Of a stretch of 32,000 bases of DNA, positions 1,430 through 32,000 are shown in pieces. Source of the DNA: Pyrodictium abyssi. GTDB lineage: Archaea > Thermoproteota > Thermoprotei_A > Sulfolobales > Pyrodictiaceae. Position numbers and translations under genes: made by a program. Each line of letters opens with the position of its first letter. Positions within the stretch are counted from its first letter, which is position 1. Location of the stretch: the NCBI RefSeq assembly GCF_036323395.1, contig NZ_AP028907.1, positions 629,588 through 661,587 of the forward strand. The letters are read 5' to 3'. Under the pieces are notes generated by a model. That model saw only the letters and a list, made by a program, of their open reading frames with translations. It was not told the DNA's origin and did no database searches.

Positions 1430-1456
1430 AGCCAGGGAAGGAGGGGAGGTGGAGCC

Positions 1457-3203: not shown

Positions 3204-3209
3204 GGGGCC

Positions 3210-11423: not shown

Positions 11424-11948
11424 TTAGCTGACGCTTAGCACCTGGAAGTTGAGGATCACTGGTAGGCTGTCGAACAGCATACCCTCCTTGGCCTCGTAGT
11501 AGGCTTCAACCTTTAGCTGTATCTTGTTAGTGCTACTGTAGTCGTCGTTGTCTAGTATTATGACTGCGCTGGGCTTCTTGAGGCTTAGCACAGCCTTGGT
11601 CTCCTCAACAGTACTAGAGGCATTGCTTGTGAGTACTAGCTGTAGGTACTTGAAGTATGGCCTTAGCTGGGCAGCATTGGCTAGAGTCACCTTTAGCTTT
11701 ACTACGTTCACGTCAGTATAGTTTATTATTTTTACGTAGCCCATATCCTTGTAGCCCTGTGCGCCAGCAGCAGGAGCTATGGTGTTGTCTAGGTGGCTCT
11801 CTACGTCTATTGGCTCTTGCACTGCTTGTGCTGTGCCGGTGGCGTAGAAGCTGTTGAGCGGGCTCTGGGTGGTGGCGAAGCCAGCTAGCAGGGCGAGGGC
11901 GGCAGCCGAGGCGATGATACCCGCTATAGCTAGGGTTGTGTACCTCAT
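11424..11948 (-). CDS. Secreted filament-subunit candidate, Can-like family (174 aa; cannula CanA/B/C-like by architecture)
   Basis: Signal-peptide-like MRYTTLAIAGIIASAAALALLAGFATT, then SPLNSFYATGTA, APAAGAQG, LANAAQLRPYFKYLQL, and a C-terminal YYEAKEGMLFDSLPVILNFQVLSVS-stop. Sequons NYT and NAS are present. The start at ATG 11948 is chosen by alignment with the paralogue; the ORF is also open to ATG 11960. Confidence 0.8.
   Translation of the reverse strand: MRYTTLAIAGIIASAAALALLAGFATTQSPLNSFYATGTAQAVQEPIDVESHLDNTIAPAAGAQGYKDMGYVKIINYTDVNVVKLKVTLANAAQLRPYFKYLQLVLTSNASSTVEETKAVLSLKKPSAVIILDNDDYSSTNKIQLKVEAYYEAKEGMLFDSLPVILNFQVLSVS
11830..11948. repeat. Copy 1 of a 119-bp near-identical segment covering the 5' end of Can-like genes
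   Basis: 116/119 identical to 22053-22171. Differences are g/a at position 6, a/t at position 53, and ATG versus GTG at the start codon. Confidence 0.95.
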
Positions 11949-12012
11949 GGCTCGAGGCACCTTCCCGTCTATGTTTTTGTTCTGTCAAGTGTTATGTAGA
12001 AGTTGTTTCTGG

Positions 12013-13530: not shown

Positions 13531-14688
13531 GTGCCTGGCATGCGGCTACCGCTACCGCTGCCCCGGCGTATCAAGATACGGCGCGAGCCCCGGCTAGCAG
13601 ACATCTGGATCATGCAGCGCTGGCCTATTGAGTCGCTCGACGCCTGCAAGATGGCGGACCCCCCGTTCGCCGACATAAACGGCGTGGGCGCTGTGCTGGA
13701 GAGGCTCGTGGACCAGGTCGTGGCGGGGCGGGGCGGCATATACATAATAGTCGGGGCCCCGGGCTCCGGCAAGTCCACGCTCCTCAAGACCCTGCATAAC
13801 CGGCTCCGCCGGGGCGGTATATACTCCCTCTACATGGATACCGCTGGGCGGAGCCTCGACGACTTCGTGGCTAGCCTCTGCTCTATCCTCGGCTGCCGCG
13901 AGGTCTCGCTCGACTCGCTCATGGAGAGGATACGCGAGAAAGCCGCGGAAGAGGGCACCATGGCCCTGCTCCTGGACGACATCGACCGCATATCCGGGGG
14001 CAACATGGACGATGTGGGCAAGCTGCTTACGGGCCTCACTGCTGTCCAGCGGGAGATCGGCCGCGGGCTCTTCATAGCCTTCAGCATGGCCCGTGAGAGC
14101 CTGGCAAGGCTCACCCTAGACCCCCTGATGAGGGGCCTCGTCAAGTCCTACATGGAGGTTATAGACCTTGACGAGCACCTCGTGAACTCCCCCACCGATC
14201 TCTCCAGGCTCCTCTACGCCCACTTCGAGCGGGCCCGGCCGCCCAACCCAGACCCCAAGGCCGCTGCTATACTCAACCGGTACCCGCTCCACCCTATCCG
14301 CGACCAGAACGTCATAAACATGCTCTACGAGATACTCGGCACAGATACGCCGCGCATGTACCTCGAGAAGGTGGACGAGCTGCTAAGGATAGCCATACGC
14401 GCCCGCTCACGCGTCGTGAGCATAGCACACCTAAACATACTAGCGAGGAGGCTCATCCAGGCCCGGCGCGAGGCTGTGCCCATTACCCAGATACAGGTCA
14501 TGCTGGTCCGCCGCTACGTGAACGGCCTGATAGCCGGCGGCCTCGTAGTGCTAGGCACAGTTGCCATAACCCTGGCGGCGATAAACCTAGTCCCGCCGGG
14601 CCTCAAGCTGCCCTACGTAGTGGTCGGCCTAGTGCTGATGCTCGCCGGTATACTGGTGCACATGAGGTCCATAGCTAGGCCGGGCTGA
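13531..14688 (+). CDS. Membrane-anchored P-loop NTPase (AAA_22/ORC-like ATPase domain plus two C-terminal TM helices)
   Basis: Walker A IIVGAPGSGKSTLLKTL and Walker B MALLLDDIDRI. The C-terminus has two hydrophobic helices, LIAGGLVVLGTVAITLAAINLV and PYVVVGLVLMLAGILVHM. The true start may be ATG 13612 or ATG 13651. Confidence 0.7.
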   Translation: MPGMRLPLPLPRRIKIRREPRLADIWIMQRWPIESLDACKMADPPFADINGVGAVLERLVDQVVAGRGGIYIIVGAPGSGKSTLLKTLHNRLRRGGIYSLYMDTAGRSLDDFVASLCSILGCREVSLDSLMERIREKAAEEGTMALLLDDIDRISGGNMDDVGKLLTGLTAVQREIGRGLFIAFSMARESLARLTLDPLMRGLVKSYMEVIDLDEHLVNSPTDLSRLLYAHFERARPPNPDPKAAAILNRYPLHPIRDQNVINMLYEILGTDTPRMYLEKVDELLRIAIRARSRVVSIAHLNILARRLIQARREAVPITQIQVMLVRRYVNGLIAGGLVVLGTVAITLAAINLVPPGLKLPYVVVGLVLMLAGILVHMRSIARPG

Positions 14689-14750: not shown

Positions 14751-15332
14751 GTGAGCGAGTACCTCAACGTAGTGGTACCGGAGGAGAGGGGCGGTATACC
14801 CCCCGCCCTGGTGGCGCTGGTAGCGCTAGCAGCCATAGTGGCCGCTGGGCTCAGCGTCTCTGGGCAGCTGCCGCGCTTCGCCGTCATCCAGACGACGAGT
14901 ATGGTCCCTACACTGGTTCCGGGAGACGTGGTGATGATAACGAAGGTTGACCCGATGTCGATCGATGTCGGCGACGTGATAGCCTTCAACCTTGTAGCCT
15001 ACGAGGTGGACGAGCAGGGGCGGCCCATCGACATGAAGGGCATCAAGATAACAGTGCACCGCGTGATAGAGAGGAAGATGATCAACGGCCGGCTCTACTT
15101 CCGCACCCAGGGCGATAACAACCCCGTGCCAGACCCCTGGCTCGTACCCGCCTCGGGCGTGCTGGGCAAGGCGGAGAAGGTTGCTAGCCTAGGCACCTTT
15201 GGCCTGGTACTGACCAACCCCATAGGCAGGGTGTTCGTGATAATGATAATGCTGTCGTCACTAGTCCTGCTGGGCAGCACTATGTGGAGCTATAGTAAGG
15301 GTATACGCGAGGATCTTGAGAACTACCTCTAG
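14751..15332 (+). CDS. Type I signal peptidase, archaeal/ER (Sec11/SipW-like, Ser-His) type
   Basis: Catalytic-Ser box IQTTSMVPTLVPGDVVMI, His box TVHRVIER and FRTQGDNNPVPDP box. N- and C-terminal TM helices are present. GTG start. Confidence 0.85.
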   Translation: MSEYLNVVVPEERGGIPPALVALVALAAIVAAGLSVSGQLPRFAVIQTTSMVPTLVPGDVVMITKVDPMSIDVGDVIAFNLVAYEVDEQGRPIDMKGIKITVHRVIERKMINGRLYFRTQGDNNPVPDPWLVPASGVLGKAEKVASLGTFGLVLTNPIGRVFVIMIMLSSLVLLGSTMWSYSKGIREDLENYL

Positions 15333-17429: not shown

Positions 17430-20400
17430 TCAGCCAGCCCCGGCGCGGGGGCCCGCGTAGTCGTCGCCGGCGGCCGGGGGGGCGGCTGTGGTGGCTGTGG
17501 CGTTCGCGGGGGTCACGTTGCCCGGTGCCGTGACGTTGGCTGGGGCTAGCTGGGCGCCCGGCCCCGCGGCTAGTACGCCGCTAGCACGGGCCAGTGTGAA
17601 GGACTCTCGGGCGCCGTCGGGCACGGCGCGCAGTACTGCCTCGTAGCTGGCCGTCGCGTTGCCCCTCAGCTGTATCTTCACCCTCATGGAGGCTATGTCG
17701 CCGGGCCGTAGCGCGTCAACCCTCATGACCGCCATGCTGGTGGTGTAGCTGCCCGGCTCGGCGTCGAGCACCTCTACCCCGCTGGGGAACTTTACGCTGA
17801 CAACCACGTTCCTGAGGTCTATCGAGTCCAGGTTCGCGGCGCTGACCTCTACTATGGCGCGGTCCCGGTACCTCTCCACCTCCTTGACCTCGAGGGCCAC
17901 GTGGGGCACCTTCACCCTCACCGGGACCGTGGCCAGCGTGTTGCCGTCGAGCCTGAGCACTATGTAGACCGTTGTCTCGCTCCCCAGCGGCGCGCCGGGG
18001 GAGACGTGTAGCGTAGCCCACCTGGTGGTGAACTCTCCGGGCTCAAGGTCCGCCCGCGTCGCCGGCAGGAAGAGCCTGGCTATCGAGTCGTTGCCGTTGA
18101 CCGGGACTATCTCCGCGCCCTCTATCCTCATACCAGAGGCCACGTCTATCCTCACGTCCACCTCGCTCCCGGGCGGCGCCGCGACGTAGCCCGGCGTCAC
18201 AGTGACCTCCACTGTGCGGCGGAGGAGCTCTAGCACTGGTATCCTGGCTACACGGTACTCCTTGATCAGGTACTGGCCGGTCTCGTCGTAGACCAGGAGC
18301 CTTGCGTCAAGCGTGTCCAGGGGCTCCAGCTTGACGGTGTCGAGGTTTACGCTTATGTCGAGCGTGCGGTGGCTCCGAGCCGGGAGCGCCACCGTCTCGG
18401 CGTAGTCGTATATCGTGCACGCCTTCACGTCGACGCAGTCGCCCTGCCCCTTGACGAGCACAAGCCGCGCTAGGAACACGGCGTCGCGGTCCTCTGGGTT
18501 GTAGAAGGACAAGCTTATGGTAAGCCCTCTCCTCGCTATGTCTACCTCCACGTCCTCTAGCCGGGGCTCCACCATGACGGAGCGTAGCTCCACGCCACTG
18601 GTGCTTGTTGCTATAACTTTGCCGTTCGGGTCGAGCACGTGTATGCTCATAGTGTAGACGCCGGGGTAGGCGGTCGGCGGCACCGGTATGTTGACCACGA
18701 AGCTAGCGCTGCCGCCCAGGGGCACCAGCTCCTCCCCGGACTCGGCCTCGCCCAGACCCTCTATCGAGACCCTGACCCTGAGCCGGGCGTCAGTGTTACC
18801 CGTGTTAGCCACCTTAACCTCTACGCGGAAGCTCTTACCCACCACCGGGAGGTCTAGCACACGCACCTCCTCCACGGTGGCAGAGACCACTGGCTCCACT
18901 GTCAGCAGGTTGTGGAGGCTCCAGGAGGCGTAGGGCATCCCCGCTATGTAGAGGACTGCGCGGGCGTCGTAGCTCCCTGCCGCGGCGTCGCCCGGGACCT
19001 GTATGGGGACCTGGACCAGGTTAATGCCGGGGAAGAGTGGCTCCTCAACGCTGTAGCTCCGGCCGAGCAGCTGTACCTCCAGCCGGCTCTGGACTGAGCC
19101 CTCGCCGTCCAGCCGGAGCTTCACCGAGACCAGGGCCTGGCCGCCGGGCTTCACGCTCCCCGGCGACGCGCTGTAGTCCTCCAGGGATATGCTGTACGAG
19201 ACTACCTCTAGCGCGGCCTCGGCGCGGGAGGCCTCGTAGAGGTCGTCGCCCCTGAACTCCACGGCGAGGCTGTGCCTGCCCACGCCGAGCCACGAGGTGT
19301 CGAACTCAACCACTGCCACGCCGTCTCGGCCGGTGCGGGCGCTGCCCACGAGCTTCCCGTCTACGTAGAAGCTCAGGGTGCGGCCCACGAGCGGGCCCCC
19401 GGAGACCCCGTCAACCAGCCTGGCCTCGACGTGGGCGAGGCTGCCGCGCGACACCACGAAGCTCTGAGCCTCTATCTTGCTCGGCCTCTTCAGCACCTCG
19501 ACTGTCTTGCTCTTGACGCCGGTTAGCCCCGTGTCGTCCACGACTGTGAGCGTGACGTTGTAGACACCGGGCTTCTCGAACACGTGGGTAACTATCGCGC
19601 CCTCGGCCACCGTGCCGTCGCCGAACTCCCAGCGGTACCCAGTGATGTTGCCGTCGGGGTCGTAGGAGAGGAGCCCGTAGAACGTGACGTTGACGCCCCA
19701 GTAGGGCTGCCGCGGCGAGAACCAGAACCCAGCGACCGGGGGCCTGCCCTCGACGCACCAGACCGGGCGCGAATCCAGCCAAGGCTCGTAGTACTGCCTG
19801 GGGTTAGGCCGCCCCTCAAGCCACGGCATCACTATAGGGCTGCCCTTGCCCTCCGGGTTGCCCGTAGCCCGGGGGCCCGAGGGGTCACCCCACCAGTTGT
19901 GCCCCGCGTAGACGTAGCCCTCCTCAACCTTCAGCCCGTACTCGGCGCCCTCCAGGCAGCTGTAGCTCACCACCGCGGTAGAGTCCACAACACTCTTCAC
20001 GTAGACCGCCTGGGGGCCCGAGACCCGGGAGTAGAGCACCTCTAGCCTCGCCCTGCCACCCACGCCGCCCTTCTCGCCGTCAATAATCAGGCTCTCCAGC
20101 TGGCACCTATAGATCCTCATCACGGTGGACTGGCCGTAGAGGCCCCAGTCCTCGCGCACCCAGTTATCCGCAATGCTCTCGCCCCGGACCAGAACCCTCC
20201 CCATAACGGTGTTGCTCGCAACAAGACTCGACTGGTCCAGGCCGCGGCCCGAGGAGGTGCCGTTGTAGAGCCCATAGCCGTGGATAGTGAGGCCCTCCAG
20301 CGTGGAGTCTGTGATGCTCATCCACGAGGATAGCAGCCCCTCAGGCCCCTCTACCACTACGCTGCCCAGCCTCACACGCTCCAGCACCAGGCTACTACGG

Positions 20401-21212
20401 AACAGCGCTGCGCCCTCCCCCGCGTAGCTCCGGTCTACCACCACGGAGAGCCCGGAGAACACGGAGTCGCTGATGCTTATCCGGGACTCGTAGACACCAT
20501 ACATGACCGCCGGCACTAGCTTGTAGCTCGTGACGGTGACAGTCGTGTTGCCGGTAGTGATGTTGTAGCGGATGGGCACCTTCACCTGCAGCCCGGTGGC
20601 GTAGGAGTGCACCACGAACTCCCCCGTGGCGTTGACGCGGCTCAAAGTTATCTCGGACTGGTACACCGCGCTAGTCTCGTTGCCCAGGCCCAGCGACTCC
20701 ACCCTAAAGTCGCCCACAATGGTCACGTTGTCCAGCGCCACCGTGGAGTTGTAGACGCTCCGGTAGGCCGCCTTGAAGGACAGCCCGCCACGTATAACAG
20801 AGTCCGTAAACGTCACGTTGGACTCCGTGAGCCCTGTAAACTCCAGGCCATCCTCGACAACAACGTTCTTGAACACCAGGACCGAGCCCGTCACAACAAG
20901 CGTGCCGCGCCCCACCAGTGTTACCGGGCTCCCCGGCTTACCCTCGGCAAGGATCACGCCACGGTCAACCGTGACCGTGACGCCGGGCGCGAATATCAGG
21001 ACAACACCGTCCTCTATCCGGACCTCGGCCTTAATCCGGATATCCCTCGTGATTATGTACGGGCTCCCCTCACGAGTCAACACAGTATTGACTATGATAT
21101 CGCGGTCGATAGGCGTAGGGCTCGCCTCAGCCCCCGCCGCGCCCCACACCCAGCCCGCCAGAGACACAAGGTACAGTACAAGGAGTATGGACACCAGTAG
21201 CCGCCTATACAA
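17430..21212 (-). CDS. Giant secreted surface protein: signal peptide, right-handed beta-helix region, PKD domain, multiple Ig/CARDB-like domains (1260 aa as encoded)
   Basis: Signal-like MYRRLLVSILLVLYLVSLAGWVWGAAGA. Repetitive beta-helix-type segments span aa 35-445 and end in HNWWGDPSGP. The PKD motif YRWEFGDGT...HVFEKPGVYNVTLTVVDDTG spans about 19494-19742. CARDB-like FRVEVKVANTGNTDA is present, with many N-x-S/T sequons and a C-terminal NVT/NAT/Thr-Pro tract. Confidence 0.85.
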   Translation of the reverse strand: MYRRLLVSILLVLYLVSLAGWVWGAAGAEASPTPIDRDIIVNTVLTREGSPYIITRDIRIKAEVRIEDGVVLIFAPGVTVTVDRGVILAEGKPGSPVTLVGRGTLVVTGSVLVFKNVVVEDGLEFTGLTESNVTFTDSVIRGGLSFKAAYRSVYNSTVALDNVTIVGDFRVESLGLGNETSAVYQSEITLSRVNATGEFVVHSYATGLQVKVPIRYNITTGNTTVTVTSYKLVPAVMYGVYESRISISDSVFSGLSVVVDRSYAGEGAALFRSSLVLERVRLGSVVVEGPEGLLSSWMSITDSTLEGLTIHGYGLYNGTSSGRGLDQSSLVASNTVMGRVLVRGESIADNWVREDWGLYGQSTVMRIYRCQLESLIIDGEKGGVGGRARLEVLYSRVSGPQAVYVKSVVDSTAVVSYSCLEGAEYGLKVEEGYVYAGHNWWGDPSGPRATGNPEGKGSPIVMPWLEGRPNPRQYYEPWLDSRPVWCVEGRPPVAGFWFSPRQPYWGVNVTFYGLLSYDPDGNITGYRWEFGDGTVAEGAIVTHVFEKPGVYNVTLTVVDDTGLTGVKSKTVEVLKRPSKIEAQSFVVSRGSLAHVEARLVDGVSGGPLVGRTLSFYVDGKLVGSARTGRDGVAVVEFDTSWLGVGRHSLAVEFRGDDLYEASRAEAALEVVSYSISLEDYSASPGSVKPGGQALVSVKLRLDGEGSVQSRLEVQLLGRSYSVEEPLFPGINLVQVPIQVPGDAAAGSYDARAVLYIAGMPYASWSLHNLLTVEPVVSATVEEVRVLDLPVVGKSFRVEVKVANTGNTDARLRVRVSIEGLGEAESGEELVPLGGSASFVVNIPVPPTAYPGVYTMSIHVLDPNGKVIATSTSGVELRSVMVEPRLEDVEVDIARRGLTISLSFYNPEDRDAVFLARLVLVKGQGDCVDVKACTIYDYAETVALPARSHRTLDISVNLDTVKLEPLDTLDARLLVYDETGQYLIKEYRVARIPVLELLRRTVEVTVTPGYVAAPPGSEVDVRIDVASGMRIEGAEIVPVNGNDSIARLFLPATRADLEPGEFTTRWATLHVSPGAPLGSETTVYIVLRLDGNTLATVPVRVKVPHVALEVKEVERYRDRAIVEVSAANLDSIDLRNVVVSVKFPSGVEVLDAEPGSYTTSMAVMRVDALRPGDIASMRVKIQLRGNATASYEAVLRAVPDGARESFTLARASGVLAAGPGAQLAPANVTAPGNVTPANATATTAAPPAAGDDYAGPRAGAG

Positions 21213-21478: not shown

Positions 21479-22171
21479 TTAGCCTACCTGCAGTACCTGG
21501 AAGTTGAGTATTACTGGTAGGCTGTCGAATAGCATGCCCTCCCTAGCCTCATAGAAGGCCTTGACCGTTAGTACAGCGAATGTAGCGTCATTGCCCATGC
21601 CATTGAATACGCCACTCTTAGTTATCTGCCAGCTGCCAGTTGCGTTGCCTATTTCTATCTTATCGCTGGGTGAACCTGGTACCCAGAATGTTACGTTTGC
21701 TGGTATGCTTGCAGCTGTCTCGTTCAGCTTAGCAATATTGAACAAGTCTTCAGCGTCAAGTATTATTACGGCTTTAGGCTTCTGTAGGGAGAGGACAGCT
21801 TTGATCTCTGAGTAGTTGCCTATAGCGGACTCGTTTGTGTTGAAGGCGCTTGTTATCTGTAGCTGTAGGTACTTGAAGTATGGCCTTAGCTGTGCGGCAT
21901 TGGCTATTTTTACTAGGAGCTTTACGTCGTTTACGTCGGCGCGTACTGGCACTAGCACAAAGCCCATGTCCTCGCTGCCCTGGGCGCCGGCGGCGGGGGC
22001 TATGTTGGTGTTGAGCTTGCTCACTACGTCTATTGGCTCGCTTACCGCCTCTGCTGTACCGGTGGCGTAGAAGCTGTTGAGCGGGCTCTGGGTGGTGGCG
22101 AAGCCTGCTAGCAGGGCGAGGGCGGCAGCCGAGGCGATGATACCCGCTATAGCTAGGGTTGTGTACCTCAC
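21479..22171 (-). CDS. Secreted filament-subunit candidate, Can-like family (230 aa)
   Basis: GTG start. The first 40 aa are identical to the 174-aa paralogue. Motifs APAAGAQG, IANAAQLRPYFKYLQL and a C-terminal FYEAREGMLFDSLPVILNFQVLQVG-stop are present. Five sequons: NES, NYS, NET, NVT, NAT. Confidence 0.85.
   Translation of the reverse strand: MRYTTLAIAGIIASAAALALLAGFATTQSPLNSFYATGTAEAVSEPIDVVSKLNTNIAPAAGAQGSEDMGFVLVPVRADVNDVKLLVKIANAAQLRPYFKYLQLQITSAFNTNESAIGNYSEIKAVLSLQKPKAVIILDAEDLFNIAKLNETAASIPANVTFWVPGSPSDKIEIGNATGSWQITKSGVFNGMGNDATFAVLTVKAFYEAREGMLFDSLPVILNFQVLQVG
22053..22171. repeat. Copy 2 of the 119-bp near-identical 5' gene segment
   Basis: See 11830-11948. Confidence 0.95.
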
Positions 22172-22289: not shown

Positions 22290-23162
22290 GTGCGGTGGGT
22301 GTTTAGGCTCCGGGCGGGGGGAGCGCTACGAGGGGCGCTGGCTGTGGCCTGGCGTGCCTGGGTAGCTGTATCCAATGCTGTCCACTTCGAGGATGATGCT
22401 GGGCTCTGGGTTGATGGGGACCGCGGCGCTGTGGCGGTGGCGGATGGGGTCTCGATGTCCCGGGGCGGGGGCGCCTCGTTCCTGGCCGCGTGGGGGTTCG
22501 CTGCGCTCTGCCGGGCCCTGCTGCCGGACTGGAGGGGGAGCCTGGCGGGGGCCGCGCAGCGGTGCCTAGAGCTGCTGGACCGCGCCGCCCGGGAGGCGCT
22601 GGCGCTCGACGCCGCGGCTGTGGCGGAGGCGAAGCAGCGGTACTACCGCGGCTGCGGCTCTCCCTGCACCCGGCCCCCGGGCCTCGCCGAGCTAGAGGCC
22701 CTGAGGCCCCTGGAGCCCGGGGGGAGGGGCGCCGAGGCGAAGCCGAGCTCGACGCTCCTCGCAGCGCTCCTGGGCCCCGGGGGCCGGGCCGCGCTGGTGC
22801 TAGCCGGCGACGGCGCGGTGGTAGCGACCACGGGGGGCCGGGAGGACACCTGGCTCCTCTGGGGCGCGCTGCCCCAGTTCTACGAGGGGAGCCGGGTCGC
22901 CCGCTTCCTGGAGGTCGGCGGCGGGCTCCGGGGCGAGCCGGTGGTGCTGGAGACCATCCTGCCCCGGGGCACCCTGCTAGCCCTGGCGACGGACGGTGTG
23001 GACCCCGCGGCGCTCGCCGAGGAGCTGGTAGAGCTGGCCAGGCGGGGCATCCCCGAGCCCGCCGCCGAGAACCCGGCCGGCTACCTGCTACGCCGCATAG
23101 AGGAGCGCACCGGGGGCCTAGAGGACGACGCCACCCTCGCGCTGGTGGAGTGGACGGGCTAG
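22290..23162 (+). CDS. PP2C-like (PP2C_2/SpoIIE-type) protein phosphatase
   Basis: AVAVADGVSMSRGGGASFLAAW is the first metal-binding D-G motif region. LLALATDGVDP and the near-C-terminal LEDDATLALVEW are also present. The upstream part of the 361-aa ORF (22077-22289) is antisense to the Can-like gene and was discarded. Candidate starts are TTG 22287, GTG 22290 and GTG 22299. Confidence 0.55.
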   Translation: MRWVFRLRAGGALRGALAVAWRAWVAVSNAVHFEDDAGLWVDGDRGAVAVADGVSMSRGGGASFLAAWGFAALCRALLPDWRGSLAGAAQRCLELLDRAAREALALDAAAVAEAKQRYYRGCGSPCTRPPGLAELEALRPLEPGGRGAEAKPSSTLLAALLGPGGRAALVLAGDGAVVATTGGREDTWLLWGALPQFYEGSRVARFLEVGGGLRGEPVVLETILPRGTLLALATDGVDPAALAEELVELARRGIPEPAAENPAGYLLRRIEERTGGLEDDATLALVEWTG

Positions 23163-23223
23163 CCCCCCGGGGCCCAGCCCTAATTAGGCGCATACGGCCC
23201 GGTATAGCCTGGGGGCGGAGCTC

Positions 23224-24018
23224 GTGGCTGGCGCGGTGGACCGGAGGGCTCTCGGGGAGGCGCTGCTGGAGCTGCTTGAGGAGGACCGGGAGTTCCGCCA
23301 CGCTGTGATGGGGCTGCTGGGCTACCGCGAGGTACTGGAGAGGATAACCAGGCTTGAGGAGCGGTTCGCGAGACTAGAGGAGAGGTTCGCCAAGCTGGAG
23401 GAGGAGTTCCTGGAGCTGCGGAGGGCCCAGCAACGCCTCGAAGAGAGGCAGCAGCGCCTAGAGGAGAGGTTCCAGAAGCTAGAAGAAAGATTCGCAGAGC
23501 TAGAGGAGCACTTTGCCCGGCTGGAGGAGCGCTTCGCCAAGCTGGAGGAGGAGTTCCAGAAGCTAGAGGAGAGGCAGCAGCGCCTAGAGGAGAGGATGGC
23601 TAGGCTAGAGGAGGAGATGAGGGAGACGCGGAGGGTGCTGAACACGATCGCGCACAGGTTCGGGCTGCTCACGGAGACGGGGTTCCGCGAGGCCATGCGG
23701 TACGTGGTCGAGGAGGCTCTCGGCGCCGCCCGGGTCGAGAGGCTCTCCCTCCGGGACGAGGAGGGCCTAGTCTACGGCTACCCCGCCACCGTGGACATAG
23801 ACCTGGTGGTGAGGGACGGGGAGCACATAATCGTCGAGGTCAAGTCCAGGGTGGACCCGGGGGACGTGGCGGTCCTCGCCCGCAAGGCCAGGCTCTACGA
23901 GAGGGAGACCGGCACCAGGCCCCGGGCAGTGATACTGGGCGGCTACGTGGCCCCCTCGGCCTACGAGGCCGCAGCCCGGCTGGGCGTCACGGTCAGGCCC
24001 TACCTCAGGGAGGACTAA
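23224..24018 (+). CDS. Coiled-coil protein with C-terminal PD-(D/E)XK nuclease-fold domain
   Basis: GTG start. An approximately 90-aa heptad array (LEERFAKLEEEF...) is followed by ...ATVDIDLVVRDGEHIIVEVKSRV, the canonical D...E-x-K core. Confidence 0.65.
   Translation: MAGAVDRRALGEALLELLEEDREFRHAVMGLLGYREVLERITRLEERFARLEERFAKLEEEFLELRRAQQRLEERQQRLEERFQKLEERFAELEEHFARLEERFAKLEEEFQKLEERQQRLEERMARLEEEMRETRRVLNTIAHRFGLLTETGFREAMRYVVEEALGAARVERLSLRDEEGLVYGYPATVDIDLVVRDGEHIIVEVKSRVDPGDVAVLARKARLYERETGTRPRAVILGGYVAPSAYEAAARLGVTVRPYLRED
23344..23619 (+). repeat. In-frame 21-nt (heptad) tandem periodicity with an internal duplication of about 147 nt
   Basis: RLEERFAKLEEEF(L/Q)...QQRLEER occurs twice, at aa 50-78 and aa 99-124 of the 264-aa protein. 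Confidence 0.85.
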
Positions 24019-24912: not shown

Positions 24913-26082
24913 CTAGCTGGTCTCCAGCACCTCTGCGTTGATGACTAGTGGTAGGCTGTCGAAGAGCACGCCCTCCAAGCCCTCGTAGAACACGGTGACA
25001 CCGTAGACAGCGGCGCGGCCGCCGTCAACCTTCCAGCTGTCCTCGTCAACCACCAGAGTATCCTCGGGCTGCCACCAGCCACTAGCCCGGTCAAAGCCTA
25101 AGGTGGCGCGAATATTGCCAAGCACAAGCACCGGATAGAGGCTACTCATGTACTCCTGAGCCTCAACTCTATCATAGACACCGTTTGTGTCGGTATCATA
25201 CCATGTCACATTCCACATCATGGTGAAGAGCACATTGCCTTCTTTATCAATGAACTCCAGTATCAATGTATAGTTGGTAGCTGCTATATCAGGCCATGTC
25301 CCTCCATCACTAACCTCGGCTATATATAAGCTTTCGTTCTCATAACTATCCCAGAAGAAGACACTAGGGTTATTATCGTAGAATATCCTTATGCTATAGT
25401 TTCCGTTGGGGTGTACAGGCTTCACTGAGAACCATAAACCCCGCTCAACAATATCATCAAGGCTTAAGTCTTCTACTAGTACTCGCCGACCGGGATTAGT
25501 TTCTGTGTTATTTATTAACGTCAGGTTAACATGGGCAACTTCTCCTAACAGCCTCCATGCAAATGCCGTAACGTTGACTCCTTCAGAAGCGTAGTTTGCT
25601 GAAACGTCGTAGATTTTCCCCGCCAATGTTGCGCTGTCTAGCGCATATCTGCCAAGGTTGTCAGGAGCACTTTCACTATCATTATCACTAGTCTCGATTC
25701 TCGGCGGGAGTTCCTCAAAGGGCGTTGGCCCTTTCCACTCCTCGTGTGCTTCCCGTATCTGTATGATGAGGTATCTGTAGTACTGTGCTAGCTGCTTGAT
25801 GTTCTCTAGCTCTAGGCGTATCTTTGTGGTGTTTACGTCGTTGTACCGTATGAGCTTGAGCCAGCTTGTCTCCTCTAGCTTGCCCTGTGCCCCCGCAGCA
25901 GGGCTTATGACGAGGTCCTTGAGCACCTGTAGGTCCACCGGCTCGCTAGTCGCCGCGCCGCCGCCGAGCCCGAGGAAGCCTGCTAGAGGGCTCCCCGTGG
26001 TGGCGAAGCCGGTTAGGAGGGCGAGGGCGGCAGCCGAGGCCACAACAGCCAGGAGAGCGAGAGTCTCGCGGCGGAGGCTCAC
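24913..26082 (-). CDS. Secreted Can-like family protein with large central insert (389 aa)
   Basis: GTG start. Leader MSLRRETLALLAVVASAAALALLTGFATTGSPLAGF, then SPAAGAQG, ELENIKQLAQYYRYLIIQIREA, and a C-terminal VFYEGLEGVLFDSLPLVINAEVLETS-stop. The central insert of about 230 aa is AT-rich and rich in N-x-S/T sequons. Confidence 0.85.
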   Translation of the reverse strand: MSLRRETLALLAVVASAAALALLTGFATTGSPLAGFLGLGGGAATSEPVDLQVLKDLVISPAAGAQGKLEETSWLKLIRYNDVNTTKIRLELENIKQLAQYYRYLIIQIREAHEEWKGPTPFEELPPRIETSDNDSESAPDNLGRYALDSATLAGKIYDVSANYASEGVNVTAFAWRLLGEVAHVNLTLINNTETNPGRRVLVEDLSLDDIVERGLWFSVKPVHPNGNYSIRIFYDNNPSVFFWDSYENESLYIAEVSDGGTWPDIAATNYTLILEFIDKEGNVLFTMMWNVTWYDTDTNGVYDRVEAQEYMSSLYPVLVLGNIRATLGFDRASGWWQPEDTLVVDEDSWKVDGGRAAVYGVTVFYEGLEGVLFDSLPLVINAEVLETS

Positions 26083-27223: not shown

Positions 27224-28960
27224 TTACGAGCCTATGGGCTGAAGGGTGGACCCCGTGCTGCCCTGCAGCTCCTCTACGAGTATGCTGCGTAGCTGTGCTC
27301 GTAGCTTCTTCTTGTCTATCTTGCCGACGCTTGTCCTCGGGAGCTCCCTGACTAGTACCACCTTGTCGGGTAGCCACCACTTGGGTATGGCTCCTTTCTC
27401 CACGTAGTTCTCCATGAGGTAGCGCCTTATCTCCTCGGTTGTGGGCTCATCCTTGCAGCCGGGCTTGGGGACTATTGCTGCTACTGGGCGTTCCTGCCAC
27501 TTGGGGTGATAGGCTGCCACGACTGCTACCTCTGCTACGCAGGGGTGCCTGCTTATCGCGTCCTCTAGCCTGGTGGAGCTTATCCACTCGCCGCCGCTCT
27601 TGATTATGTCCTTCTCGCGGTCTACTATCTCTATGCTGCCGTCGGGGTGCCAGACGGCTATGTCGCCGGTGTGGAACCAGCCGCCGCGCCACGCTTTCTC
27701 GGTCTTCTCGGGGTCCATGTAGTACTCGGGCGTCACCCAGGGCGCCCGGACGACCACCTCGCCCATTGTCTTGCCGTCGCGGGGCACGGGGTTCATGTCC
27801 TCGTCCACCACCCGTACCTCCACGAGGGGAACTGGCCAGCCGGTGCGGAGCGCGTAGTCGAGCCACCGCTCCCCGGCGTCGCTTAGCCCCGCGTGCGGCA
27901 GGGCTAGGGTGAGCACCGGGGCTGTCTCGGTCATGCCGTAGCCCACGATCACCCGTATCCCGCGGCGTGTCGCCTGCTCTGCGAGGCCGCGGGGGAGCGC
28001 TGAGCCGCCGTTGATGAAGGTGAGCCGGCTGAGGTCGTAGCGCTCGGAGTCGGGGTGGCTGAGCAGCATGTAGAGAATGGTAGGCACACCGGCTGTTAGC
28101 GTGACCTGCTCCTCGTCTATGAGGCGTAGGAGCACGCCGGGGTCGAGCTTGTTGGGGAAGACCTGGCGCATGCCTACGAGGGTCGCTAGGTAGGGGAGCC
28201 CCCAGCTGTACACGTGGAACATGGGGACTATGTGGAGTATCGTGTCCCCGCTGCTTATCCGGAACCAAGGCGACGCCGTGGCGAGGTGGAGCGCGGCACT
28301 CATCACGTGGAGCACTATCATCCGGTGGCTGTGGTAGGCCCCCTTCGGGAGCCCCGTGGTCCCGCTAGTGTAGCCCATCGCGGCGGGCTGGTTCTCGTCC
28401 AGCTCGGGCCACTCGTAGCCGCCCCGGTGCTCCCTCACGAGGTCCTCGTAGTTGTAGACGGGGCGGCCTGCTAGCCGGTCTGGGTGCGACTCCGCGTCCA
28501 CGACCACTACGGCCCGGAGCTGGTCCAGATGCGGGGCCACGGCCTCGATGAGGGGCAGGAAGTCCCGGTGGACTATGGCTACACGGTCCCCCGCCTGCCC
28601 CATTATGTAGGCTATCTCGCTGGGCGCGAGCCGTATGTTGACCGGGTGCAGCACAGCCCCCATCATGGGGACCGCTAGGTAGGCCTCGTAGTGCCAGTGC
28701 GTGTTCCAGTCGAGCGTGGCCACGGGGTCGAGGCGGCCCACTCCAAGCGCCTCTAGGGCGGCTGCGAGGGCCTTCATCCTCTCCGCGGCCCGGGAGAACG
28801 TGTACCTCTCCACGCCGCGGCTGGTGCGGTAGACTATCTCCACCCCGGGGAAGAGGCTCAGCGCGCGCTCGTAGAATGCTCGGAGGGTGAGGCTGTGGCC
28901 GGGCCTCCAGGGTACGCGTTCGGGGAGCCCCGGGAAGGCGGACCACCAGAATCCCACCAC
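27224..28960 (-). CDS. AMP-forming acyl-CoA synthetase (medium/long-chain fatty-acid--CoA ligase family)
   Basis: AMP-binding motif MGYTSGTTGLPKGAYHSH, plus VGYGMTET, WFHTGDIAVW...DREKDIIKSGGEWISS, and a C-terminal ...RTSVGKIDKKKLR. Confidence 0.9.
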   Translation of the reverse strand: MVGFWWSAFPGLPERVPWRPGHSLTLRAFYERALSLFPGVEIVYRTSRGVERYTFSRAAERMKALAAALEALGVGRLDPVATLDWNTHWHYEAYLAVPMMGAVLHPVNIRLAPSEIAYIMGQAGDRVAIVHRDFLPLIEAVAPHLDQLRAVVVVDAESHPDRLAGRPVYNYEDLVREHRGGYEWPELDENQPAAMGYTSGTTGLPKGAYHSHRMIVLHVMSAALHLATASPWFRISSGDTILHIVPMFHVYSWGLPYLATLVGMRQVFPNKLDPGVLLRLIDEEQVTLTAGVPTILYMLLSHPDSERYDLSRLTFINGGSALPRGLAEQATRRGIRVIVGYGMTETAPVLTLALPHAGLSDAGERWLDYALRTGWPVPLVEVRVVDEDMNPVPRDGKTMGEVVVRAPWVTPEYYMDPEKTEKAWRGGWFHTGDIAVWHPDGSIEIVDREKDIIKSGGEWISSTRLEDAISRHPCVAEVAVVAAYHPKWQERPVAAIVPKPGCKDEPTTEEIRRYLMENYVEKGAIPKWWLPDKVVLVRELPRTSVGKIDKKKLRAQLRSILVEELQGSTGSTLQPIGS

Positions 28961-29060: not shown

Positions 29061-30104
29061 CTAGAGTATGGAGGAGAGGGTGTAGCTGGGCATGTGCCGC
29101 TTCTCGCCCGGGTCTACGACGAATATGTGGTAGAAGGCCTCCACTATGTCGTCGCCTAGGCCGCGCCAGAGCTTGCTGAGCTCGAGGTACTCCTGCTGGT
29201 CCAGGTAGCCCTGGTCAGCCATGCTCAGCGGGGGCCAGCCGCCGGGGTAGCCGCGCTCCGCCTCGGCCTCGACGATCTCGCGCCAGTGGCCACCGGTGAG
29301 CATGGGGAGGCCGTGGAACGGGCTAAGCCCCGTGTAGACGATCGCTACGAGCTGTAGCCCGTACCAGGTCGGGGCCCAGGCTATCCAGGAGAGGACGGGC
29401 CGGGGCAGCTGGGAGACTATGAGGGGTATGGGGAGCTCGCCGGGGTCCGGGGGCTCGAGCTCTACGCCTATCTCGCTGAGGGCCTCGACGGGGAGGAGGT
29501 GTGCGTCGCGGGCGGGTAGGACTGTGAGCGGGTAGTCCTCCGAGCCTATTATCCCCGCGGTCTCGTAGTCGTAGAGGAAGACCCCGGTGACCCCGTCCAC
29601 GGTCCCGTAGGCCGCGTTAGCCGTGGTCGTGTCTACGTGGGCTATGTCGGCGGCGTCTAGGCATGCGAGGCCTCTTAGCACCTCGCGGGCGAACTCCCTC
29701 CTCTCCTCGTCGCTGTGCTTCTCCAGGTACTCGCCGAGCAGCTCCGGGTCGTTGATCAGCTCCGAGACAGTGGTGAAGCCCTCTAGCTCGCGGAAGACTA
29801 GCACCGCGCGGTCCTCTAGCGCGCCCACCGCTACGGGTAGGCCGCGGAGCCGGAGGCTGTCCGGGAGCACGCGGCCGCACTTGCGGCGGAGCCTGGTGAG
29901 CCGGCGGAGCATTTCGGCTATACGCTCTATGGGCTTGGCCAGACCCGTGTACTTGGGCGTGTAGACCTTGAGGATGTAGCTCTTGCCGCCGCGGAGCCGG
30001 GCCCGGTATATGTCGGCCTCGCCGCCGCTGTCGAGGAGCTCCCACTCGCCGCTACTAGTGTCCACGACCCAGCCGTCGTAGAAGACCAGGGTGACCTTGC
30101 TCAT
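29061..30104 (-). CDS. Atypical protein kinase-like protein (RIO/Bud32-like N-terminal domain plus unknown C-terminal domain)
   Basis: G-loop/Lys region DSGGEADIYRARLRGGKSYILKVY, catalytic-loop-like IAHVDTTTANAAY (H-x-D-x4-N) and metal-binding-like FLYDYETAG. The ATG 30104 start is preferred because GGAGGGAGGAG lies about 10 nt upstream and the longer ORF overlaps the vWA gene. Confidence 0.55.
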   Translation of the reverse strand: MSKVTLVFYDGWVVDTSSGEWELLDSGGEADIYRARLRGGKSYILKVYTPKYTGLAKPIERIAEMLRRLTRLRRKCGRVLPDSLRLRGLPVAVGALEDRAVLVFRELEGFTTVSELINDPELLGEYLEKHSDEERREFAREVLRGLACLDAADIAHVDTTTANAAYGTVDGVTGVFLYDYETAGIIGSEDYPLTVLPARDAHLLPVEALSEIGVELEPPDPGELPIPLIVSQLPRPVLSWIAWAPTWYGLQLVAIVYTGLSPFHGLPMLTGGHWREIVEAEAERGYPGGWPPLSMADQGYLDQQEYLELSKLWRGLGDDIVEAFYHIFVVDPGEKRHMPSYTLSSIL

Positions 30105-30130
30105 GGGGCGCCGCTCCTCCCTCCGCGGGC

Positions 30131-30922
30131 CTAGACCGTGGCTGTCTCGCTCAGCCTCTCGACGAACCTGCGCACAGCCTCCTCCCACTCGCGGGATATC
30201 CTGTCGTCCGCCGGCGCGTCGATGAACATCTTCTCGTGGTACGGCGGGTCCACGAGGTCTATGAGGCCGCGCTCCTCTAGGACCCGGCGCTGGGCCTCCC
30301 GGAGGAAGCTCGCTATGTCGCGCAGCGTCTCCCGGTCCGCGTCCTGGCCCAGGGCTATGGTTGCTAGGCCTATACGGTTCCTCTCGTGAAGCCTCCTCAT
30401 CCTCTCCGCCAGGTCCATGGTTATCTTCTCCGCAGCCGCCACCACGTCGTCGACGCTCCTCTTGGTCTCCTTGCCGTCGGTGAAGAGGAATATGGTGCCG
30501 TACTTCTCCGGCGGCAGCGTCAGCTGGTTCACGTAGCGCTCCACCACGGAGGCGGCCGCCTCAAGCGCGTCGGCCATAGCGGTCATGCCGTAGGGCCGGT
30601 TCCTCTCGAGGCTCTGGCGGAACACCTCCAGGGCAACGTTCCGGGGGGACACGGGGAAGTAGACGCGGCCATCCTGCTCGACTATCTCCACGTCGTCGCT
30701 GTACCAGACGAAGCCAACCTGGAACGCGGGAGCCATCCTGCTGCGGCCGAGCCTCCGGAGAAGCATCTCCACGAGGTCTGCGAGGTGGAACCACTTCCCC
30801 CGGTAGTCGTAGGTCTTGGGCTCCATCATGCTAAGGGAGCGGTCTAGGATGAAGACGACCAGGACTGTGTAGCTGAGCGGGCGCCTACGCAGCAGCTGCA
30901 GCGCGAAAGACCGTGACACCAT
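30131..30922 (-). CDS. von Willebrand factor type A (vWA) domain protein with intact MIDAS
   Basis: VVFILDRSLSMM (D-x-S-x-S), GMTAMADAL (MIDAS Thr) and IFLFTDGKET (MIDAS Asp). Confidence 0.75.
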   Translation of the reverse strand: MVSRSFALQLLRRRPLSYTVLVVFILDRSLSMMEPKTYDYRGKWFHLADLVEMLLRRLGRSRMAPAFQVGFVWYSDDVEIVEQDGRVYFPVSPRNVALEVFRQSLERNRPYGMTAMADALEAAASVVERYVNQLTLPPEKYGTIFLFTDGKETKRSVDDVVAAAEKITMDLAERMRRLHERNRIGLATIALGQDADRETLRDIASFLREAQRRVLEERGLIDLVDPPYHEKMFIDAPADDRISREWEEAVRRFVERLSETATV

Positions 30923-30982
30923 GACCAGCCTCCACGAGTTCTACGGGTGGGTGCTCCCGGGGCCGCGCGGGCAGCGCGAGGG

Positions 30983-31789
30983 CTAGGAGGCTTCCTCCCC
31001 GAGGCCTGTAGCCTCGCCCTCTCCCCCCGCACGCTGTAGCAGTGTTACCACAGATATACTACCCGCTATATTAGCTACTACAAGACCCTTATCACTCGAT
31101 ACTACCAGCCGCGCAACGTCGCCGCCGCCCACCGCGTCTAGGGCCTCGACTAGCCGGGCAAAGGCGTCGGAGAGGGCCCGGGCGAACACGACAGCCTCCT
31201 CCTCCTTGAGGCCCTCAGAGTCCAGCACACTGCCCTTGGAGAGGTCTATCGCTACGCTGCGTAGCCTACCGGTTAGCCGCGCCCCGCCGCCCTGAGCCAG
31301 GTTCACGAGCTCGAGGAGCTCGACGAAGTAGTCCCCTAGCTTGCCCCCGGGGACACGGGGCTGGAGGGTGGCGGGGAACACGCTCACCAGGGAGACTATG
31401 ATACGGTTTATGATGCGTGAGAGGGCTTCGCCCCCGTACTCCTCTATGAGCTTGCCCTCCGCCTCCGCCTCCAGGTAGAGGCGGCAGCCGCTCCCACGCG
31501 TGACCCCAGTAGCCCGGACCACGCCGTGCATGTCGCCGCGGAGGATGAACTCCACCCTGTCTATCCCGGCGCTCGTCTCCACCTCTACGCGCAGGCTGTC
31601 GTACTGAGAGGACGCGAAGGTGAGCACTATTATCCCGCGGCGCTCGCCTTTGCCGGTGAGCCGCGCAGCCCCGGCCACGAAGGACGCTGGGTCGCGGGCG
31701 GCGAGCAGCCGTATCACCCTATCGCAGGGAGCCGCTACGTCGAGGACAGCACTCCTCTTTACAGTGGCCAAGGCCTTGGAGCCCAACAA
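30983..31789 (-). CDS. Hypothetical protein; N-terminal half SRPBCC-like, C-terminal half Roadblock/LC7-like (both weak)
   Basis: 268-aa ORF with a TTG start, 60 nt upstream of the vWA gene on the same strand. The N-terminal ...VKRSAVLDVAAPCDRVIRLLA.DPASF resembles SRPBCC openings. The C-terminal ...VARLVVSSDKGLVVANIAGSISVV resembles Roadblock domains. Confidence 0.5.
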   Translation of the reverse strand: MLGSKALATVKRSAVLDVAAPCDRVIRLLAARDPASFVAGAARLTGKGERRGIIVLTFASSQYDSLRVEVETSAGIDRVEFILRGDMHGVVRATGVTRGSGCRLYLEAEAEGKLIEEYGGEALSRIINRIIVSLVSVFPATLQPRVPGGKLGDYFVELLELVNLAQGGGARLTGRLRSVAIDLSKGSVLDSEGLKEEEAVVFARALSDAFARLVEALDAVGGGDVARLVVSSDKGLVVANIAGSISVVTLLQRAGGEGEATGLGEEAS

Positions 31790-31800
31790 ACCAATTCCCC

Positions 31801-31818
31801 ATGTATAGGATTAATATG
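31801..31818 (-). promoter_or_regulatory. TATA-like elements upstream of the 268-aa/vWA/kinase operon
   Basis: The - strand reads CATATTAATCCTATACAT, about 12-29 nt upstream of TTG 31789. This is compatible with a leaderless or short-leader transcript. Confidence 0.35.
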
Positions 31819-32000
31819 TCTTGCCACAGGCCCCTGGCGCAGCCGCCCTCCCGGGAGAGCAGAGGAGGACGCGCCAAAGCCTGGATGGAGAGGCGCCACG
31901 CAGGGGAGAAAACGGGGATACGCCACCATCTAGGCCGGGGTGCTAGCGCGCTACTTCTTCTTGCGCCTTACGCCTCCCTGGCGTGACAGCAGCATCAGCC

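Follow-up and report, generated by a model that had tools for sequence, protein, structure and literature searches.

A Pyrodictium abyssi operon encoding an SRPBCC-Roadblock protein, a vWA protein and a divergent eukaryotic-type kinase, and its relation to a conserved vWA-kinase-PP2C module

Signalling by Ser/Thr phosphorylation in archaea is largely uncharted outside Sulfolobus. The Pyrodictiaceae grow at about 100 C or above and are among the most heat-loving archaea. A stretch of 32,000 nucleotides (nt) from a member of this family, Pyrodictium abyssi (contig NZ_AP028907.1 of assembly GCF_036323395.1, positions 629,588 to 661,587 of the forward strand; the window), contains at 29061-31789 three adjacent minus-strand genes for a protein of uncertain fold, a vWA protein and a kinase-like protein, and a gene for a PP2C-family phosphatase is found several kilobases away on the other strand. 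The locus raises the question of whether these genes make up a phosphorylation-based signalling system and, if so, of what kind. The analysis presented here defines a compact, conserved module of a vWA protein, a divergent but complete kinase and a PP2C phosphatase in the Pyrodictiaceae, the core of which recurs in phylogenetically diverse, uncultured organisms, and which probably acts as a reversible phosphorylation switch.

The three minus-strand genes form a real operon. Gene 1 (P1; 30983-31789; 268 amino acids, TTG start), gene 2, which encodes the vWA protein (30131-30922; 263 amino acids, ATG start), and gene 3, which encodes the kinase (29061-30104; 347 amino acids counted from the ATG, with the maximal open reading frame (ORF) extending to 30188), are separated by gaps of 60 nt and 26 nt respectively. 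This arrangement had been described in the initial annotation, and the motifs quoted there, as well as a GGAGG ahead of the kinase ATG, were all present in the ORF list or the sequence. By reading of the sequence, a ribosome-binding motif, GGAGGGAGGAG, is located at 30114-30124 (-) within the 26-nt gap ahead of the kinase ATG, and a GGAGG ribosome-binding motif at 30929-30933 (-), 6 nt 5' of the vWA ATG. The usual crenarchaeal pattern is a leaderless first gene followed by internal genes that are led by Shine-Dalgarno motifs. Seen against this known promoter architecture, an A/T-rich, TATA-like element (ATATTAAT, 31810-31817 (-)) that lies 21-28 nt 5' of gene 1's first TTG is a putative promoter of the operon, gene 1 then being leaderless. 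The start codon of gene 1 is uncertain, with in-frame TTG alternatives to the one at 31789 at 31786 and 31771. The operon probably ends after the kinase, because the next gene downstream, for an acyl-CoA synthetase (27224-28960; Pfam AMP-binding, E 2e-81), has a TATA-like box of its own (TTAAATAG) in front of it.

Comparison with the orthologs from Pyrodictium occultum gave ratios of nonsynonymous to synonymous substitution (dN/dS) of 0.26 for gene 1, 0.12 for the vWA gene and 0.20 for the kinase gene. These values show purifying selection, and all three genes are therefore functional. The identity of the three proteins to those of P. occultum ranged from 72 to 88%, and the three genes were syntenic in every examined Pyrodictiaceae locus that spans them.

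Gene 3 had been assigned to the kinases with the label RIO/Bud32-like, followed by an "uncharacterised C-terminal domain of about 140 aa". The kinase assignment was borne out by the protein fold. The AlphaFold2 (AF2) model, computed with 16 homologs as input, had a mean predicted local distance difference test score (pLDDT) of 93 and a predicted template modelling score of 0.91, and a Foldseek search of the PDB with this model returned 1322 matches at E ≤ 1e-3. The best of these were canonical eukaryotic-type protein kinases (ePKs), namely DYRK1A, CLK1, PRPF4B, CASK and CaMKII, which aligned across both lobes over about 340-380 columns with a probability of 1.00. Modelled helices at residues 235-258, 271-283, 303-314 and 318-333 align with the C-lobes of ePKs, and what had been taken for an uncharacterised domain is the C-lobe of the kinase, helices aF to aI. 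As modelled, gene 3 encodes a complete two-lobed ePK fold with C-lobe helices aE-aI, and the protein ends at the C-lobe, with no fused zinc ribbon or OB fold.

The catalytic residues of this kinase are intact. The motifs S26-GGEADIY33, Y-I-L-K46-V-Y, H156-V-D158-TTT-A-N163 and D179-Y-E181 are present, and S26-GGEA (with G27/G28), K46, E60, H156-x-D158, N163 and D179-x-E181 were invariant in 17 close relatives, as were W247-YGLQLV, F263-G-L (in an SPF-x-GL stretch) and W290-PP. In the broader family (22 sequences), the Gly of the Gly loop, the Lys, the catalytic Asp and Asn, and the second Asp were invariant or nearly so. Subdomains IX and X of ePKs are represented by the W247-YGLQLV...SPF-x-GL stretch, and remote relatives also bear the subdomain XI signature P..R.SF. 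The kinase is of the non-RD type (H-V-D), with D-x-E in place of DFG, and its activation segment is without an invariant Ser or Thr. By what is generally known of kinases, the non-RD type and the lack of such a hydroxyl residue suggest that it needs no phosphorylation of the activation loop.

The family to which this kinase belongs is, by sequence comparison, rare, divergent, distinct from ordinary ePKs and missed by Pfam. A Pfam scan of the window kinase gave no match at E ≤ 1, while PF00069 (Pkinase) matches were found in remote members of the family, and the P. occultum ortholog is named "Protein kinase domain-containing protein" in UniRef. The best NCBIfam match was the Bud32 model, at 22.9 bits against an equivalog cut-off of 246, and a PDB profile search returned TP53RK at E 0.029. 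Bud32/RIO kinases were recognised by a truncated C-lobe, the lack of an activation segment and of helices aG-aI, and a length of about 200-260 amino acids. Membership in this group was ruled out: the score is far under the cut-off, the protein has 347 amino acids with a full C-lobe and activation segment, its partners are vWA and PP2C proteins, and there is no link to Kae1, since the Kae1 (KEOPS) gene was absent among the kinase neighbours in the window, in the complete genomes of three relatives and in the remote loci. The neighbours that were found are the vWA gene, gene 1 and the acyl-CoA synthetase gene, with PP2C in relatives. The resemblance to Bud32 is thus confined to the catalytic loop (HxDxTTxN, compared with HGDLTTSN in Bud32) and the ranking of the sequence-level matches.

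The product of gene 2 exceeded the Pfam cut-offs for VWA (38.3 bits, cut-off 23.8) and VWA_2 (31.9 bits, cut-off 27). The vWA domain comprises residues 22-205 and is followed by a C-terminal tail of about 55 amino acids. The metal-ion-dependent adhesion site (MIDAS), which had been noted earlier as complete, is formed by D27-R-S29-L-S31, T114 and D149, and D27, S29, S31, T114 and D149 were invariant in 11 aligned sequences, 3 of them remote homologs. The helical tail was invariant at E248, R251, F253, S258 and T260 ("...FVERLSETA"), again including 3 remote homologs. This is the most conserved protein of the operon, with 88% identity to P. occultum, the lowest dN/dS of the three, and 67-88% identity across genera. 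There was no match to Pfam TerY_C, and 5A8J, the ArnB paralog vWA2, was not recovered with this protein by phmmer or by PDB profile search at E ≤ 1.

Gene 1 had been guessed to be an SRPBCC- or Roadblock-like protein, and both domains proved to be present, fused in one polypeptide. The AF2 model had a mean pLDDT of 77, rising to about 90 in the N-terminal domain. Residues ~10-143 show the helix-grip pattern beta-alpha-alpha-beta6-alpha, and the Foldseek match to this domain in the PDB was 2ns9 (APE2225 of Aeropyrum pernix, CoxG-type; E 5e-7), with further fold matches to 2d4r, 3p9v, CoxG and plant PYL receptors, including PYL-PP2C complexes (E 5e-7 to 5e-4). Residues ~151-252 show the pattern alpha-beta-beta-alpha-beta-beta-beta and matched the Roadblock protein 3kye with a root-mean-square deviation of 1.8 A and 28% identity over 80 columns; dynein LC7, LAMTOR and MglB were the other fold matches. 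Gene 1 is therefore modelled as an SRPBCC/START domain fused to a Roadblock/LC7 domain. At the level of sequence, Pfam Robl_LC7 matched weakly (18 bits, cut-off 23; E 0.0024), with matches in 4 of the 17 orthologs, and gene 1 had no significant match in a sequence-profile search of the PDB. The linker at 145-173 is highly conserved yet modelled with low confidence. It forms part of the most conserved segment, Y118-GGEAL...FPA-x-LQPR-x-PGG-x-LGD-x-F-x-ELL, which spans the end of the SRPBCC domain and the linker, and whose pattern is typical of what would be an interaction surface. Orthologs of gene 1 are confined to the Pyrodictiaceae.

The PP2C-family phosphatase is encoded at 22290-23162 (+) (about 290 amino acids; Pfam PP2C_2, 29.0 bits against a cut-off of 24), 6 kb from the operon on the downstream side of the kinase, on the opposite strand and between two cannula-family (Can) genes. 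Its metal-binding motifs (H32/D35, D52-G53, G173-D174, D235-G236 and D279-D280) were invariant in 10 sequences, including remote ones. The window PP2C is 46-47% identical to the PP2C that adjoins the operon in Hyperthermus butylicus and Pyrofollis japonicus, where the phosphatase gene is immediately upstream and divergently transcribed. Among the 14 Pyrodictiaceae loci retrieved for comparison, PP2C directly adjoins gene 1 in six (L001, L002, L005, L006, L007 and L011), and in two others (L009 and L010) the two are split by a 3.6-kb insert. The order of the conserved block is ODP-u196, PP2C (divergent), P1-vWA-kinase-Zn-ribbon-u268; the last two genes were missing only at contig ends, and neither is in the window.

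P. occultum and one metagenome-assembled genome (MAG) have a membrane-anchored WD40 protein in the place of PP2C upstream of the operon. In P. occultum it is a WD40 beta-propeller surface protein that precedes gene 1, and comparison of translations showed that the 48 nt at the edge of the window (31951-31998 (-)) translate to a tail ("...LMLLSRQGGVRRKKK*") that resembles the transmembrane-plus-basic end of this protein. This is the probable 3' end of an upstream gene, a match of only 15 residues that is suggestive only. With a WD40 protein at the PP2C position in P. occultum and apparently at the window edge, PP2C has therefore been displaced in the Pyrodictium lineage. Sequence comparison identifies the window PP2C as an ortholog of the operon-adjoining PP2C, which places it with the operon in one vWA-kinase-PP2C module. 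The earlier suggestion that this distant gene completes such a module is thereby upheld.

Two further proteins are encoded after the kinase in the block. The Zn-ribbon protein (about 255 amino acids; L001 11136-11894) combines an N-terminal domain of about 110 amino acids with three or four zinc ribbons and, at its C-terminus, two hydrophobic helices, and u268 (about 260 amino acids; L001 11923-12729) has two domains joined by a Pro/Ala-rich linker. Equivalents were found in L002, L005-L010 and L012, and in L003 at 665-3231 (-). PDB profile searches with the Zn-ribbon protein recovered zinc ribbons only. A Roadblock-like nature of its N-terminal domain was suspected but stays an unproven impression, hhalign against the Roadblock domain of gene 1 giving no significant match (E 0.0045-0.018, probability <8%), and u268 had no detectable relation to gene 1 or to the Zn-ribbon protein. 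On the other side of the block, an ODP gene (oxygen-binding di-iron protein, Pfam ODP) and a gene for a protein of about 195 amino acids (u196) always lie just past the PP2C/WD40 position (L001 5234-7322; equivalents in L002, L003, L005, L007, L009-L011 and L013), and this pair may be part of the same conserved block.

To place the module in a wider setting, relatives of the kinase were collected from 1.84 billion representative proteins by a HMMER search with the kinase profile, which returned just 26 matches at E ≤ 1e-3. Every remote member with a retrievable contig was included, and the ORFs of these loci were scored with vWA, PP2C, kinase, gene 1 and Zn-ribbon profiles. A vWA gene was directly upstream of the kinase in all 16 distinct remote loci that have upstream sequence. 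Directly downstream, on the same strand and often overlapping, a PP2C gene was found in 16 of the 17 loci that have downstream sequence, the lone exception being a bacterial MAG with a longer kinase. The GC content of these loci ranged from 0.27 to 0.63, and their flanking genes were of archaeal and bacterial types. The three genes of the operon are thus co-conserved within the Pyrodictiaceae, and vWA and kinase are co-conserved in the remote loci.

Some remote loci contained additional parts. Duplications were listed for L033 (102-2929), L039 (2-2414) and L038 (1958-5927); in two remote loci another kinase of this family is encoded upstream of vWA, and in one there is an additional vWA protein of about 1000 amino acids. 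In L021 (8822-10171 (-)) and L024 (5939-7999 (-)), a gene convergent on PP2C encodes a shared C-terminal domain of about 35-95 amino acids preceded by differing N-terminal parts, one protein resembling a repeat or beta-propeller protein and the other being a multi-pass membrane protein. The common domain may be a fourth component of the module.

The conservation of the triad, in which no catalytic or metal-binding residue is lost, points to a switch that works by reversible phosphorylation and has the vWA protein at its centre. The operon probably provides the adaptor and kinase arms of this Ser/Thr phospho-switch, the conserved core of which is vWA, ePK-type kinase and PP2C. In the mechanism proposed here, a constitutively competent non-RD kinase would phosphorylate a protein partner, most likely the vWA protein itself. 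With its invariant C-terminal Ser and Thr it is the most economical candidate for a substrate, and phosphorylation would fall on this Ser258/Thr260 tail. PP2C would strip the phosphate, and the phosphorylation state would decide which partner the vWA domain binds via its MIDAS. This scheme agrees with the metal-sensing phospho-switch that has been proposed for the TerY-P triad. The product of gene 1 would be a Pyrodictiaceae-specific probable input sensor or scaffold, with ligand binding by the SRPBCC/START domain on a dimeric Roadblock/LC7 platform. The two C-terminal hydrophobic helices read from the sequence of the Zn-ribbon protein could tether the complex to the membrane.

Several observations weigh against this reading. 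The window PP2C is 6 kb off and on the other strand, and P. occultum, the closest relative, has no PP2C within 10 kb of the operon; tight co-expression is therefore not required in the Pyrodictium lineage. Gene 1 and the Zn-ribbon protein were absent from all remote loci, and the core switch therefore does not depend on them. The SRPBCC assignment was made at the level of fold, and no SRPBCC Pfam family matched any of the 17 orthologs of gene 1. The usual partners of Roadblock domains are small GTPases, and no small-GTPase gene was found in the scanned window ORFs or within 10 kb in three complete genomes. The choice of the vWA tail as substrate would follow from two invariant hydroxyl residues and the analogy with ArnB, and no output domain, either DNA-binding or effector, was found with the module.

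Among the systems with which the module was compared, the closest known kind is the TerY-P triad. This consists of a vWA protein, a PP2C and a Ser/Thr kinase, and has been hypothesised to work as a metal-sensing phospho-switch (Anantharaman, Iyer and Aravind 2012 and Gao et al. 2020, as summarised in PMC11090510); its kinase is fused C-terminally to a zinc ribbon, or to an OB fold in the defence version (PMC11090510). The likeness consists of a stand-alone vWA protein, PP2C and ePK-type kinase as gene neighbours (16 of 17 remote loci and 8 Pyrodictiaceae loci), and of a zinc ribbon tied to the kinase, which is fused in TerY-P but is a separate downstream gene in most Pyrodictiaceae. Here, by contrast, the genes run in the order vWA-kinase-PP2C, the kinase is not fused to a zinc ribbon or OB fold, and a link with ter genes or restriction systems is absent. 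At E ≤ 1, no PADLOC model matched the vWA, PP2C or gene 1 proteins, and the kinase matched only at a generic kinase level. No relatives of the kinase family were found on viral contigs, and a tblastn search of 72,556 plasmids with the vWA protein gave no match. In the Pyrodictiaceae the module appears to be vertically inherited, together with its SRPBCC-Roadblock, Zn-ribbon/transmembrane (TM) and u268 accessories. The three-gene architecture agrees, but membership in TerY-P, judged by the form of the kinase, the gene order, the PADLOC models and the plasmid and viral searches, is not established.

The initial annotation had named recurrent "ternary modules" as the precedent. The "ternary systems" of Kaur et al. 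2020 (PMC7159879) are ruled out by their composition, which is MoxR-vWA-VMAP and not kinase/PP2C, and the TerY-P triad is the right precedent. The same study describes actinobacterial GAP1-N2 GTPase-centric systems with a linked kinase (often with zinc ribbon/TM), PP2C and stand-alone vWA (PMC7159879), which differ in being centred on a GTPase and restricted to actinobacteria, whereas no GTPase was found here.

An analogy with ArnA/ArnB of Sulfolobus had also been drawn, and it stands in principle only. ArnB is a vWA protein of about 370-400 amino acids with a vWA domain as well as a beta-sandwich and a C-terminal four-helix bundle, and is phosphorylated on its C-terminal helical domain (PMC6509490); it acts with the kinases ArnC/ArnD and the phosphatase PP2A (PMC6509490). 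Common to both systems are a vWA protein of crenarchaeal origin whose MIDAS is intact and whose helical C-terminal region contains Thr/Ser, ePK-type kinases and a phosphatase that act or would act on the vWA protein, and a zinc-binding partner protein. However, the phosphatase of the Arn system is PP2A and not PP2C, its kinases are not in an operon with ArnB, and the partner of ArnB is an FHA protein, while no FHA domain was matched in the scanned window ORFs or in the module-associated proteins of relatives. ArnB-type membership of the vWA protein was ruled out by the lack of a beta-sandwich and four-helix bundle, its length of 263 amino acids and the absence of a 5A8J match.

Two bacterial arrangements were also compared. 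The DRA0331-DRA0334 operon of Deinococcus radiodurans encodes a vWA protein, a Ser/Thr protein kinase, an FHA protein and a PP2C (bioRxiv 10.64898/2026.01.23.701218). By gene content, it can be likened to the present module as a push-pull phospho-regulatory unit of vWA, Ser/Thr kinase and PP2C, but its FHA and KI-FHA docking domains are absent here and its kinase is a conventional Hanks kinase. PpkA, PppA and Fha1 of type VI secretion also combine an ePK kinase, a vWA domain and a PP2C in one regulatory circuit. There PpkA carries its vWA domain in the periplasm, fused to the kinase, an FHA protein serves as substrate and assembly of the secretion system is the result, none of which was seen here. 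The features that distinguish the present module are a rare kinase family invisible to Pfam, a different gene order, vertical inheritance in a hyperthermophile family and the SRPBCC-Roadblock and Zn-ribbon/TM accessories; no description of these accessories was found in a literature search.

The likeness to TerY-P also underlies the rival explanation that survives best, in which the module is an archaeal conflict or defence system of the TerY-P type, the vWA or SRPBCC protein sensing infection or stress and the kinase triggering growth arrest or an effector. Stand-alone anti-phage activity has been shown for TerY-P-like modules (Gao 2020, as cited in PMC11090510), and the three-part architecture is the same. 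The zinc ribbon of the TerY-P kinase could have its counterpart in the zinc-ribbon gene after the kinase in most Pyrodictiaceae, some remote loci lie beside genes for HerA/NurA-like or TraG-like ATPases or PIN proteins, kinase or vWA genes are duplicated in some loci, and the window copy sits in a variable region. Nevertheless, this explanation is considered unlikely. Apart from the generic kinase hits, there were no PADLOC matches, and there were no viral-contig or plasmid relatives; conservation with the module does not extend to any effector gene, such as one for a nuclease or pore; the genes are under strong purifying selection; and the position of the Pyrodictiaceae block is conserved in every locus examined and appears vertically inherited, unlike that of patchy, fast-evolving islands. 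Because the block is syntenic with conserved ODP-u196 flanks across genera, has no viral or plasmid relatives and has no defence-model match for vWA or PP2C, the module is probably a housekeeping signalling device in the Pyrodictiaceae and not a mobile defence island.

A second rival arises from the surroundings of the phosphatase gene in P. abyssi. The ORF at 11424-11960 (-) matches the P. abyssi cannula subunit CanX (PDB 9h8b) over its full length (E 1e-106), and at least four Can-family paralogs or fragments besides CanX are found at 24913-26082, 21479-22171, 12768-13235 and ~10232-11194 (all (-)), one of the window paralogs being a 389-amino-acid protein with Can-like N- and C-terminal parts. 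Of the Can gene clusters reported in bioRxiv 10.1101/2024.12.30.630787, the window thus spans one. The module could accordingly control how cannulae or other surface structures of Pyrodictium are produced or assembled, as ArnB/ArnA do for the archaellum of Sulfolobus, ArnB being the precedent of a phosphorylated vWA protein that governs a surface filament. The Can paralogs at 24913-26082 and 21479-22171 flank the window PP2C, a Can-like gene directly follows the kinase in P. occultum, and cannula assembly is calcium-dependent (10.1101/2024.12.30.630787), MIDAS sites being binders of divalent cations. On the other hand, the window and P. occultum are the only cases in which Can genes lie no more than 10 kb from the module, and there were none in that range in Hyperthermus, Pyrofollis, other Pyrodictiaceae or any remote triad locus. 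The cannula study names no regulatory genes, mentioning no kinase, vWA protein or phosphatase (10.1101/2024.12.30.630787). Moreover, the module proteins seem to reside in the cytoplasm or near the membrane, while cannulae polymerise outside the cell and without chaperones, and neither an FHA partner nor ArnB-type domains were found among the scanned proteins. Control of cannulae by the module is thus rated as highly doubtful.

A bolder version of the phospho-switch was suggested by the fold matches of gene 1 to plant abscisic acid receptors. In the PYR/PYL/RCAR-PP2C-SnRK2 system of plants, a START/SRPBCC receptor, a PP2C and a kinase are functionally coupled, and gene 1 lies next to PP2C, in divergent orientation, in most Pyrodictiaceae. 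Gene 1 might then be a ligand-gated PP2C regulator, in which the START domain binds a hydrophobic small molecule or lipid and, dimerised by Roadblock, inhibits or recruits PP2C, releasing the kinase onto the vWA protein. This would make it an archaeal counterpart, convergent or ancient, of PYL-PP2C-SnRK2, which in Pyrodictium might be wired to cannula-network formation. The loop G149-x-x-G152-D153 of gene 1, which is invariant and modelled with low confidence, could plug the vWA MIDAS as an acidic ligand. The similarity is at the level of fold, with 13-17% identity, and the START domain here is fused to Roadblock, unlike in plants; this elaboration is regarded as improbable.

That the kinase-like protein is instead a pseudokinase, a small-molecule kinase or a Bud32/RIO paralog of tRNA or ribosome biogenesis with incidental neighbours, as had been entertained in part earlier, is scarcely tenable, since the missing Pfam match of the window protein, the Bud32/TP53RK matches being the best at sequence level, and an HVDTTTAN loop without the Lys of HRDLKxxN, as in Bud32, RIO and APH/ChoK kinases, are outweighed by the invariance of all ATP-binding and catalytic residues (Gly loop, beta3 Lys, catalytic Asp/Asn and metal-binding Asp), the modelled ePK C-lobe from aF to aI with canonical protein kinases as best structural matches, the score of 22.9 against 246, the recognition of remote family members by Pfam Pkinase, and the protein phosphatase and vWA protein as constant, near-obligate neighbours.

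If the more speculative links all fail, what remains is an ordinary signalling operon. The general design of the phospho-switch was already known from bacteria, and the archaeal version is new. It gives the bacterial TerY-P triads a wider evolutionary setting, and the kinase with the vWA tail, the SRPBCC-Roadblock protein and PP2C are defined units with which phospho-switched vWA/MIDAS adaptors can be studied. In addition, a possible regulator is flagged beside the cannula genes of P. abyssi.

The remaining genes of the window concern the Can cluster and the surroundings of PP2C. According to the cannula paper, Can neighbourhoods are without dedicated signal peptidases (10.1101/2024.12.30.630787). 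In this window, a signal-peptidase-I-like ORF is present at 14751-15332 (+) (Pfam Peptidase_S26, E 4.8e-5, 23.8 bits against a cut-off of 22.9), which together with a membrane-anchored AAA/STAND-like ATPase at 13531-14688 (+) lies about 3 kb from CanX. Inside the cluster, at 17430-21212 (-), a protein of 1260 amino acids with PKD, Big_3_5 and DUF11-type Ig-like domains is encoded, which is probably a large surface protein. Directly 3' of PP2C, the gene at 23224-24018 (+) encodes a coiled-coil protein with DUF3782 and PDDEXK_10 (PD-(D/E)XK nuclease) domains and overlaps the end of the maximal ORF of PP2C. Long ORFs that overlap genuine genes in other frames or on the other strand were found at 22303-23301 (-), 27447-28268 (-), 28365-28946 (-), 29617-30045 (-) and 30386-30847 (+). 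Their translations are rich in Arg, Pro and Gly, the one that was scanned (22303-23301) had no family match, and they are most likely artefacts of high GC content and not genes.

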